Notes under the pieces: generated by a model
The model's database searches: none
Told to the model about the DNA's origin: nothing
Seen by the model: only the letters and a program-made list of their open reading frames with translations
Origin: Escherichia coli
GTDB lineage: Bacteria > Pseudomonadota > Gammaproteobacteria > Enterobacterales > Enterobacteriaceae
NCBI RefSeq assembly: GCF_044647545.1
Contig: NZ_CP172818.1
DNA length: 64,000 nt
Reading direction: 5' to 3' (one strand)
Position numbers and translations under genes: made by a program
In this document: positions 22,676-25,182 of the stretch, piece after piece
Layout: every line of letters begins with the position of its first letter
Numbering within the stretch: the first letter of the stretch is position 1

Positions 22676-23425
22676 ATGTCTTTGCCGTCGATTCCCTCTT
22701 TTGTGTTGTCGGGATTACTGTTGCTTTGCTTGCCGTTTTCTTCATTTGCCAGCGCCACCACATCACATATCTCTTTCAGCTACGCCGCCCGCCAGCGGAT
22801 GCAAAACCGTGCGCGTTTATTAAAACAGTACCAAACCCATCTGAAAAAACAGGCCAGCTATATTGTGGAAGGCAATGCCGAAAGCAGAAGGGCGCTACGC
22901 CAGCACAACCGGGAGCAGATAAAACAGCATCCAGAATGGTTTCCTGCGCCGCTCAAGGCGAGTGACAGACGCTGGCAGGCGCTGGCGGAAAACAACCACT
23001 TTTTAAGCAGCGATCACCTGCATAACATCACCGAAGTGGCGATTCACCGCCTGGAGCAGCAGCTTGGCAAGCCTTATGTCTGGGGCGGCACGCGGCCCGA
23101 TAAAGGCTTCGACTGTAGCGGGTTGGTTTTTTATGCCTACAACAAGATCCTTGAGGCGAAGCTCCCGCGCACAGCCAATGAGATGTATCACTACCATCGG
23201 GCAACGATTGTGGCGAACAACGACCTGCGCCGGGGAGATTTGCTGTTTTTCCATATTCACAGCCGCGAGATAGCCGATCATATGGGGGTGTATCTGGGAG
23301 ACGGTCAGTTTATCGAGTCACCACGTACCGGCGAAACCATTCGGATAAGCCGGTTAGCTGAACCTTTCTGGCAGGATCATTTTTTAGGCGCGCGGCGGAT
23401 TTTGACGGAAGAGACGATTTTGTAG
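22676..23425 (+). CDS. yafL: NlpC/P60-family peptidoglycan peptidase lipoprotein YafL
   Basis: Signal peptide; NlpC/P60 catalytic Cys context (GFDCSGLVFYAY). Confidence 0.88.
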   Translation: MSLPSIPSFVLSGLLLLCLPFSSFASATTSHISFSYAARQRMQNRARLLKQYQTHLKKQASYIVEGNAESRRALRQHNREQIKQHPEWFPAPLKASDRRWQALAENNHFLSSDHLHNITEVAIHRLEQQLGKPYVWGGTRPDKGFDCSGLVFYAYNKILEAKLPRTANEMYHYHRATIVANNDLRRGDLLFFHIHSREIADHMGVYLGDGQFIESPRTGETIRISRLAEPFWQDHFLGARRILTEETIL

Positions 23426-25182
23426 GCAGGGATCTCCCCCACAACACTCAACGCCCCCATAATCTTCAACTCCAGCTCGTCCGGCACTTCGTTATACGAC
23501 AGCACATGCAGCCCCGGCGCAAACAATCTCGCATAGCGCGCCAGCAAAGGGCGCAACTGCGGTGGCACCAGCAGCACAGGGTCTTTCCCCGCCGCTTTCA
23601 TCTGCTCCTTCACCTGCGGCATCGTACTCTGGAACTGGTTGAGCATATTCGGGTCTACCGGCACGCTGTCGAGCATCACTTTGCCGGCCTGTTGCGCCTG
23701 ATTCACCACGTTGGTCAGCAGATTTTCCAGCTCATTATTCAGCGTATACACCGTCAGCTCCTGCTTGCGAACGAACGGATGGGTAATGCTGCGCCGCAGC
23801 GCCAGGCGCACATCTGCCGCCAGCAGAATATGATCTTTGGTCACCGCACTACTGGCGACCAGCACGGTGGCGATGGTGACGATATCGCGCAGGGAAACGC
23901 CTTCAGTCAGCAGCGCCCGGTACACTTTCAGCAACTGGCTGTAATTCAGCGCCGCGCTCAAATCCTCCGCCAGTCGCGGTGCCATCGACGACAGGCGGTT
24001 ATGCAACTGCGTAATATCGTCATAGTTAAATAAATCAGGAATATAGCTGCGCACAATCTTATTCACATGCGTGGCAATTACGCTGGCGCTGTCGATCACC
24101 TGATACCCCATATTCAGCGCCTTCGCTTTCTGCGCAGGCTGAATCCAGGTGACCGGCATCCCATATGCCGGGTCATTCCCCAGTACGCCGTCAATCTCGC
24201 CGTAGGTTTCGCTGGAGGGCAGGGCCATCAGTTTATCCGCCGGAATATCCGCTTCATCAGCCTTAATGCCGTTGATGAAAATGGCGTACTGGCTGGGCTT
24301 GAGACGGAAGTTTTCCCGAATACGGATCTCCGGCAGCAGCACGCCGTTACCGTCGGATATCACCTGCCGCACGCCGCGAATCCGCTGGGTGAGCGGGTTC
24401 CCCTGCGCTTTGTCCACCAGCGCCACCAGCTTGTAGCCGAGGCTTAAGCTGATGGGCTCGATCAGCGGAATGGTTTCCCAACTGACCTGTTGCTCGCTGG
24501 TTTCGGTGATGGTTCGGGTCAGCGTTTCGAGGCTTTTCTCCTCCGCCTCCGCCGCCTGCGGGCGTTTGCTCATCCGCCAGCCGGTAAAGCCAAGCAGGGC
24601 GCTGAACAGCAAAAATGGCAGATGCGGCATCCCCGGCACCACCGCCAGCACAAACATGATCCCGGTGGCGGTGTAGAGCACCGACGGACTTGCCAGCAGC
24701 TGGTGGCGCACGTCATGGGCGATATCGCCGTTGTCGCTGACGCGGGTGACGATAATTGCCGCCGCGGTGGAGAGCAGCAGGGACGGGATCTGCGCCACCA
24801 GCCCGTCGCCGATAGTCATCAGCACATATTGCTGGAAGGCGGCGTCGGCGCTCAGGTTGTATTTGAAGATCCCGATACAGACGCCGCCGATCAGGTTGAT
24901 CGCCAGAATCATCATCCCGGCGATGGCATCGCCGCGCACAAACTTCGATGCCCCGTCCATTGCGCCGTAGAAATCGGCCTCGCTGGCAACATCTTTACGC
25001 CGGGTTTGTGCCTGCGCCTGGTTGATCAATCCGGCGTTAAGATCGGCGTCAATCGCCATCTGTTTACCGGGCATCGCGTCCAGGGTAAAGCGGGCAGAAA
25101 CCTCGGAAATACGCTCGGCCCCTTTGGTGACGACGATAAAGTTGATTGTCAACAGCGTCAGTAAATCCGAGCGTGAAAGCAT
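23377..25182 (-). pseudogene. lfhA: FlhA-family flagellar export protein remnant (Flag-2 lfhA), N-terminally deleted
   Basis: 601-aa ORF begins in the middle of the FHIPEP domain (…FTLDAMPGKQMAIDADLNAGLI…); no N-terminal TM region; 3' end overlaps yafL. Confidence 0.8.

Follow-up and report, generated by a model that had tools for sequence, protein, structure and literature searches.

An apparent overlap of yafL with the lfhA remnant in an Escherichia coli window is probably an artefact of K-12-templated consensus building

The window analysed here is a stretch of 64,000 nt of Escherichia coli DNA, to which all positions refer. At the yafL-lfhA locus it carries the following features:

22676..23425, plus strand: yafL, encoding a C40/NlpC-P60 family peptidase, intact, with its TAG stop at 23423-23425
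23377..25182, minus strand: open reading frame of 601 aa, a pseudogene remnant of lfhA (Flag-2 FlhA, LfhA), defined by tblastn alignment
23377..23425, no strand: overlap of 49 nt between the convergent frames of yafL and the lfhA remnant, from the ORF coordinates
23426..23445, no strand: 20-nt junction GCAGGGATCTCCCCCACAAC between the yafL stop and the last conserved lfhA codon
25127..25912, plus strand: lafU, across the Flag-2 deletion scar from lfhA, its product 100% identical to that of strain FDAARGOS_497

Over 249 aa, the yafL product matches the yafL annotated in FDAARGOS_497 (WP_010349174.1) at 100% identity. In the minus-strand frame, positions 23446-25164 correspond to LfhA residues 125-697 at 97.7% identity (tblastn), and homologues of the remnant carry the FHIPEP domain (PF00771). 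The frame is an FlhA-family ORF without its N-terminus that abuts lafU, which identifies it as a Flag-2 deletion remnant. Its truncation point is that of K-12 (fhiA/mbhA), EcN and FDAARGOS_497, and lafU, dinB and further neighbours follow in the same order as in K-12.

Full-length LfhA (P0005, 697 aa) ends in ...KIMGALS. In the window the remnant frame instead reads …GALS-VVGEIPAYKIVSSVKIRRAPKK before a stop at 23377-23379. This read-through tail comprises 22 codons (23380-23445) beyond the usual ...GALS end, and its first codon is GTT (23443-23445), where relatives have the TGA stop of lfhA. The two frames would not overlap if the junction retained this stop, which reads TCA on the plus strand of relatives. 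The first-pass annotation, made from the sequence without database searches, had placed the yafL stop inside an open lfhA-remnant frame reaching 23377, and these coordinates are exact.

The same annotation gave the K-12 order as yafL-rayT-lfhA, estimated that about 0.9 kb was absent, and named identity with the K-12 junction as the result that would overturn its claim. Both the order and the estimate are correct: the K-12 spacer is 896 bp, as against 20 nt in the window, and contains a REP, rayT and BIMEs. This K-12 REPtron (yafL - REP/BIME - rayT/yafM/tnpAREP - BIMEs - fhiA/lfhA) occupies the corresponding chromosomal site, flanked by the same two convergent genes, and the yafL stop lies within GTAG in the window and in REPtron alleles alike. 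Compared with it, the window lacks the rayT ORF (about 165 aa), the REP hairpins and the BIME, and its flanks are only 95-97% identical. A tblastn search with K-12 RayT found no significant match in the whole window (best E 0.65), and REP cores are absent at the yafL-lfhA site, with REP-like cores in the window only near 52234-52303. The absence of rayT and REPs at this position was thus correctly noticed. What remains of a REP/BIME at the junction is just GTAG and about 8 nt that loosely resemble a REP start.

The junction carries no other recognisable element. HicA and HicB gave no tblastn match in the window, terminator and promoter scans found nothing at the junction, and an Rfam scan returned a single chance sub-threshold match located elsewhere. 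The junction folds no better than its shuffles (z = 0.44 and -1.57). No second copy of the 20 nt that might have served as the source of a templated insertion occurs in the window within 3 mismatches.

The yafL-fhiA site is known to be polymorphic. Among 110 E. coli/Shigella genomes, tnpAREP (rayT) is present in 74, has been lost with BIMEs kept in 7 B2 strains, and is replaced by hicAB in 24, mostly B1; moreover, RayT cleavage in vitro falls at CT adjoining REPs (Ton-Hoang et al. 2012, PMC3333891). Our count over 5,426 complete E. coli genomes gave 3,575 with rayT, leaving about a third without it at the site. The hicAB allele accounts for 1,480 genomes, and 127 (for example FDAARGOS_497, strain ST648 and MS6198) carry a spacer of only 97 bp. 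A REP-only allele also exists, for example 274 bp in EcN. The 97-bp allele is REP-free, contains a perfect 10-bp GC hairpin, CCCTCGCCCC-AAA-GGGGCGAGGG (folding z = -3.8), and keeps the lfhA TGA.

The window resembles several of these alleles without matching any. In the B2-type allele (CFT073, Nissle/EcN), from which rayT has been described as "precisely excised", rayT is likewise absent and yafL and lfhA are convergent; EcN, however, has a 274-bp REP array and an lfhA end of …GALI, whereas the window has no REP at all and does not carry an excision scar of this kind. The hicAB allele (mostly B1, for example IAI1) also lacks rayT and keeps the ancestral …GALS end of lfhA, whose last codon is the last conserved one in the window, but hicA and hicB are missing from the window. 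The position of the 20-nt junction is filled in the relatives by the 97-bp spacer and the lfhA TGA (100 nt), and in K-12 by the 896-bp REPtron.

The flanks indicate which of these alleles the junction derives from. Over 8022-37500 the window differs from FDAARGOS_497 by 1-2 substitutions in about 29 kb and from K-12 by 2-5%. On the yafL side, about 6.5 kb show zero substitutions relative to the ST648-like lineage, with just small indels in the gmhA-yafJ repeat, and on the lfhA side about 5.2 kb show zero differences. The ST648-like genomes with the 97-bp allele also share with the window identical YafL, LafU, DinB and DinJ and a frameshifted yafQ. The first-pass annotation had described the background as otherwise K-12-like. 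This description fails at the sequence level, since 8021-29179 is only 95.3-97.4% identical to K-12. Because the flanks match the ST648-like allele, the step to the window junction would be a loss of 83 nt and not a 0.9-kb RayT excision.

The junction itself points the same way. We scored derivation from each allele as an edit distance in which one free deletion was permitted. The ST648-type allele requires 6 extra edits, and origins from the hicAB, K-12 and EcN alleles, which require 9, 11 and 12, respectively, were rejected. Relative to the 97-bp allele the window is short of 83 nt, including the hairpin, and the lfhA stop has become GTT; aligned to FDAARGOS_497, the changes are the 83-nt deletion plus AC>CA, AG>GA, TC>CA and +C within 20 nt.

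These data bear directly on the idea, raised in the first-pass annotation, that RayT or its REPs excised the REPtron of about 0.9 kb from a K-12-like allele and left an empty site. The GTAG that contains the yafL stop continues into GCAGGGAT, a sequence similar to the REP start GTAGGCCGGAT, and both the in vitro cleavage at CT beside REPs and the B2 strains that lost rayT while keeping BIMEs provide a precedent (PMC3333891). However, the flanks are 95-97% identical to K-12 and 100% to genomes that have neither REP nor rayT, and the ST648-type allele is the closer source of the junction by edit count. No REP hairpin is left. Known losses of rayT retain BIMEs or have hicAB (PMC3333891), and the 127 relatives with a REP-free 97-bp allele contradict such an excision. 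We therefore consider it highly improbable.

The other possibility offered there, an ancestral site between yafL and lfhA that was never occupied, draws on the outgroups. In Citrobacter, yafL and lfhA are convergent, 37-38 bp apart and without rayT, which makes an empty state ancestral in the wider group. The Citrobacter spacer, however, is an unrelated hairpin sequence and the lfhA stop is kept there. The 20 nt of the window match neither this spacer nor any other genome, including 20 loci from species-representative genomes, and rayT is present in the Escherichia outgroups E. albertii and Escherichia sp. L007 and L011. A never-occupied site is thus a very remote prospect as the origin of this junction.

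The junction could also be a real private mutation, namely a complex 83-nt deletion from the 97-bp spacer that removed the hairpin and altered the lfhA stop. Such a deletion could arise by hairpin-stimulated slippage or error-prone repair. Its outcome would be a tail of 22-23 codons fused to an already dead lfhA remnant, with yafL function unaffected. This reading fits the identity of the flanks with the 97-bp allele, the strong hairpin (z = -3.8) in the lost segment, which is a plausible natural deletion hotspot, and the intact state of yafL in both its coding sequence and its stop. Against it, 6 extra edits fall within 20 nt, compared with 1-2 SNPs in 29 kb, and the junction occurs in no other genome or metagenome searched: it is absent from the 5,426 complete E. 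coli genomes (megablast with 86 nt; blastn with 40 nt) and from metagenome contigs (exact 32-mer; relaxed pattern), and an exact look-up of the 601-aa remnant product returned no record. Plainly corrupted sequence at other K-12/ST648 structural differences in the window, described below, argues further against a private deletion, which we regard as unlikely.

The window as a whole is a composite. The following features outside the locus are relevant:

7974..8021, no strand: corrupted stretch at the yafD-yafE junction, 46-48 nt of A-rich junk ("GGCCCCCTTTAAAAAAAAAAAGACACCAATACAACACAACAAAAAAAAA")
15161..15421, no strand: retained K-12 ISAs1 remnant, 94% identical to K-12 and absent at this site in FDAARGOS_497
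20181..20215, no strand: GC-rich palindromic repeat in the gmhA-yafJ spacer, with two private indels (-TTT, -G)
28635..28643, no strand: rtcB-prfH loss point, where 1,018 nt of ST648-like genomes are missing, with the endpoints of K-12 ykfJ/prfH
29160..29530, no strand: corrupted stretch, a garbled and compressed copy of a segment of about 830 nt that K-12 lacks
33207..33216, plus strand: crl with two private 1-nt deletions (GG>G, TT>T) and a frameshift, 5-15 nt away from where IS1I is inserted in MG1655 (NC_000913.3)
37501..64000, no strand: block matching the K-12 cryptic prophage CP4-6 at every position except in the IS1 (53704-54459)

The CP4-6 block is identical to K-12 even over the K-12 copies of IS30, IS5 and ISEc19, and thrW ends exactly where ST648-like sequence gives way to sequence identical to K-12. 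Relative to K-12, the IS1 within the block shows 52 runs of substitutions and a deletion of 6 nt. An identity broken only in IS1 is the pattern expected of a retained template combined with mis-mapped IS reads.

The remaining sites follow a common rule. The junk at 7974-8021 replaces about 218 nt that are present in ST648-like genomes and absent from K-12, and at the site of the ISAs1 remnant the ST648-like genomes carry a 23.5-kb T6SS island that is missing from the window. The segment behind 29160-29530 contains a metal-dependent hydrolase gene and its neighbour in the relatives; the window copy aligns at 80.8% identity with 17 gaps until similarity ends, and T10 and A14 runs stand at its end. 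For this stretch, the best match among E. coli genomes did not exceed 75% over 43% of the length. Wherever the ST648-like genome carries DNA not present in K-12, the window shows either the K-12 structure or junk, and at crl and the REPtron site it is damaged also where K-12 has extra DNA.

All private differences (7974-8021, 15161-15421, 20193/20206, 23427-23445, 28641, 29160-29530 and 33207/33216) lie at K-12/ST648 structural differences or in simple runs. The window thus combines template-identical blocks with errors confined to structural differences between template and sample, as a reference-guided consensus does. The general class of reference-guided consensus and polishing artefacts has several properties in common with it: template is retained where sample reads are lacking, repeat copies are "corrected" from other copies, DNA not present in the template is dropped or garbled, and deletion junctions are messy. 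Unlike this class, the window has a nearly correct gmhA-yafJ spacer (4 errors), which is also structurally unlike K-12. This speaks against the artefact reading and indicates that the reconstruction did not always fail. The palindromic repeat in that spacer, which we take to be of a Box C-like family, and the hairpin missing at yafL-lfhA are members of one repeat family.

Taken together, the most likely reading is an ST648-like strain whose yafL-lfhA spacer is the ordinary 97-bp one. On this reading, the junction and the overlap of the frames are artefacts of a K-12-templated consensus, and the overlap would not exist in vivo. What we observe are the identities, the distribution of corrupted sites and a junction absent from every genome searched; the templating process and the true spacer sequence are what we infer from that pattern. 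The ST648-like lineage naturally lacks rayT, and the strain would carry the 97-bp allele with the lfhA TGA intact, the 10-bp GC hairpin of this allele presumably being the leftover of a GC-rich palindromic (Box C-like) repeat. Reads of the strain would have been laid on a K-12 MG1655 template to build the consensus. At yafL-lfhA, with 896 bp in the template and about 97 bp in the sample, the replacement would have been badly reconstructed. Template to which no reads mapped would have been retained, giving the K-12-identical CP4-6 block, and reads from other IS copies may have been mis-mapped, giving the substitution runs in IS1. Elsewhere, insertions relative to the template would have been lost or garbled and deletions left with ragged edges.

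We also considered a natural hybrid between K-12 and a wild strain, formed by conjugation or transduction, as the source of the composite. Recombination can yield neither the A/T-run junk of the two corrupted stretches (7974-8021, 29160-29530) nor the indels that adjoin the MG1655 IS1I site. Therefore, this candidate was rejected.

If a K-12 template was used, the exact junction and the frame overlap are untrustworthy. The K-12-like gene order seen in the first-pass annotation then appears to derive from that template. The absence of rayT is a separate matter: it is real for the lineage, and it is already known as a common published polymorphism. For this reason the biological weight of the locus is small, and lfhA is a dead remnant, so that even a genuine overlap with yafL would have no evident effect. 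In practice, the analysis serves as a warning that the window mixes K-12 template, ST648-like sequence and corrupted filler. Strain-specific indels, frameshifts (crl), missing islands (T6SS, rtcB-prfH) and the K-12-identical prophage need read-level support before they are given a biological reading.

The outgroups also bear on the age of the 97-bp allele. Pseudocitrobacter vendiensis carries a spacer that matches it nearly base for base, plus 64 internal nt of palindromic repeat, and P. faecalis has rayT. The extra 64 nt and the gmhA-yafJ spacer of the window have the motif GGGAGAGGGCCGGGGTGAGGG in common; we take the repeat with this motif to be of the Box C family. In REPtron alleles each flanking REP contains a stop within its conserved terminal tetranucleotide, GTAG for yafL and CTAC for lfhA (…GALM). 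The Citrobacter-like …GALS end of lfhA is kept in the 97-bp and hicAB alleles.

The terminal codon of lfhA was considered as proof that the short allele predates the REPtron. We dropped this argument, since Escherichia sp. E1V33 combines rayT with the ancestral …GALS end and GTAGGACGG is common to the 97-bp allele and the left REP. The near-identical spacer of P. vendiensis and the Citrobacter-like lfhA end nevertheless suggest, as a possible but doubtful reading, that the rayT-less 97-bp allele is a relic of the Flag-2 island boundary before the REPtron and not a product of rayT loss. If this were true, it would become possible to polarise and date the acquisition of RayT, a domesticated transposase, at its single conserved locus.

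Our comparison revealed that window 37501-64000 is identical to the K-12 cryptic prophage CP4-6, with 0 differences apart from one IS1, and that the 29 kb preceding position 37501 share ~100% identity with an ST648-like genome. The end of thrW is the exact point at which ST648-like sequence changes over to K-12-identical sequence. The excepted IS1 (window 53704-54459) has K-12-identical flanks on both sides; compared with the IS1 that K-12 carries at this site, it shows 52 substitution runs and a deletion of 6 nt, and it may have been overwritten by reads of other IS1 variants.

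K-12 structures were also found before this changeover. Window 15161-15421 holds the ISAs1 remnant of K-12 (94% identity) instead of the T6SS island of 23.5 kb that ST648-like genomes carry there. Moreover, the rtcB-like/prfH pair (window 28425-29160) carries a 1,018-nt deletion at ~28641, the same as in K-12 ykfJ/prfH (ORFs of 88 aa and 166 aa); both genes are intact in FDAARGOS_497, an ST648-like E. coli genome.

Two further stretches correspond to segments that are present in ST648-like genomes and missing from K-12. Window 29160-29530, which matched no E. coli genome, contains in compressed, garbled form a segment of ~830 nt (a metal-dependent hydrolase gene and its neighbour), and ends in runs of T10 and A14. 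At the yafD-yafE junction (window 7974-8021), ~46 nt of A-rich filler stand in place of ~218 nt.

The crl gene (window 33151-33550) is frameshifted by the loss of one nucleotide at 33207 and another at 33216, nine bases further on. The sequence at both positions is intact in K-12, FDAARGOS_497 and LR-28, and the deletions lie 5-15 nt away from the IS1I insertion of MG1655 crl. The toxin gene yafQ of dinJ-yafQ (window 21994-22203) is frameshifted as well; because FDAARGOS_497 has the same frameshift, which is annotated there, this is probably a real feature of the lineage. The gmhA-yafJ spacer harbors a GC-rich palindromic repeat (window 20181-20215), presumably Box C-like, with two private indels (-TTT and -G), where K-12 has REPs.

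At yafL-lfhA, in the alleles that carry rayT and flanking REPs as in K-12 (L002, L005, L012, L013 and L029), the REPs terminate in the tetranucleotides GTAG/CTAC, and these contain the stop codons of the convergent yafL and lfhA alike. The lfhA of these alleles ends in …GALM* rather than the ancestral …GALS*. Escherichia sp. E1V33 (L011) retains the …GALS* end despite the presence of rayT. Without 64 internal nt, the spacer of Pseudocitrobacter vendiensis (L008 4736-4902) is nearly identical to the 97-bp spacer of E. coli (L001 6527-6626), and between the two genera LfhA shares 98% and YafL 89% identity. This hints at an exchange of the Flag-2 region, with the spacer forming its edge.
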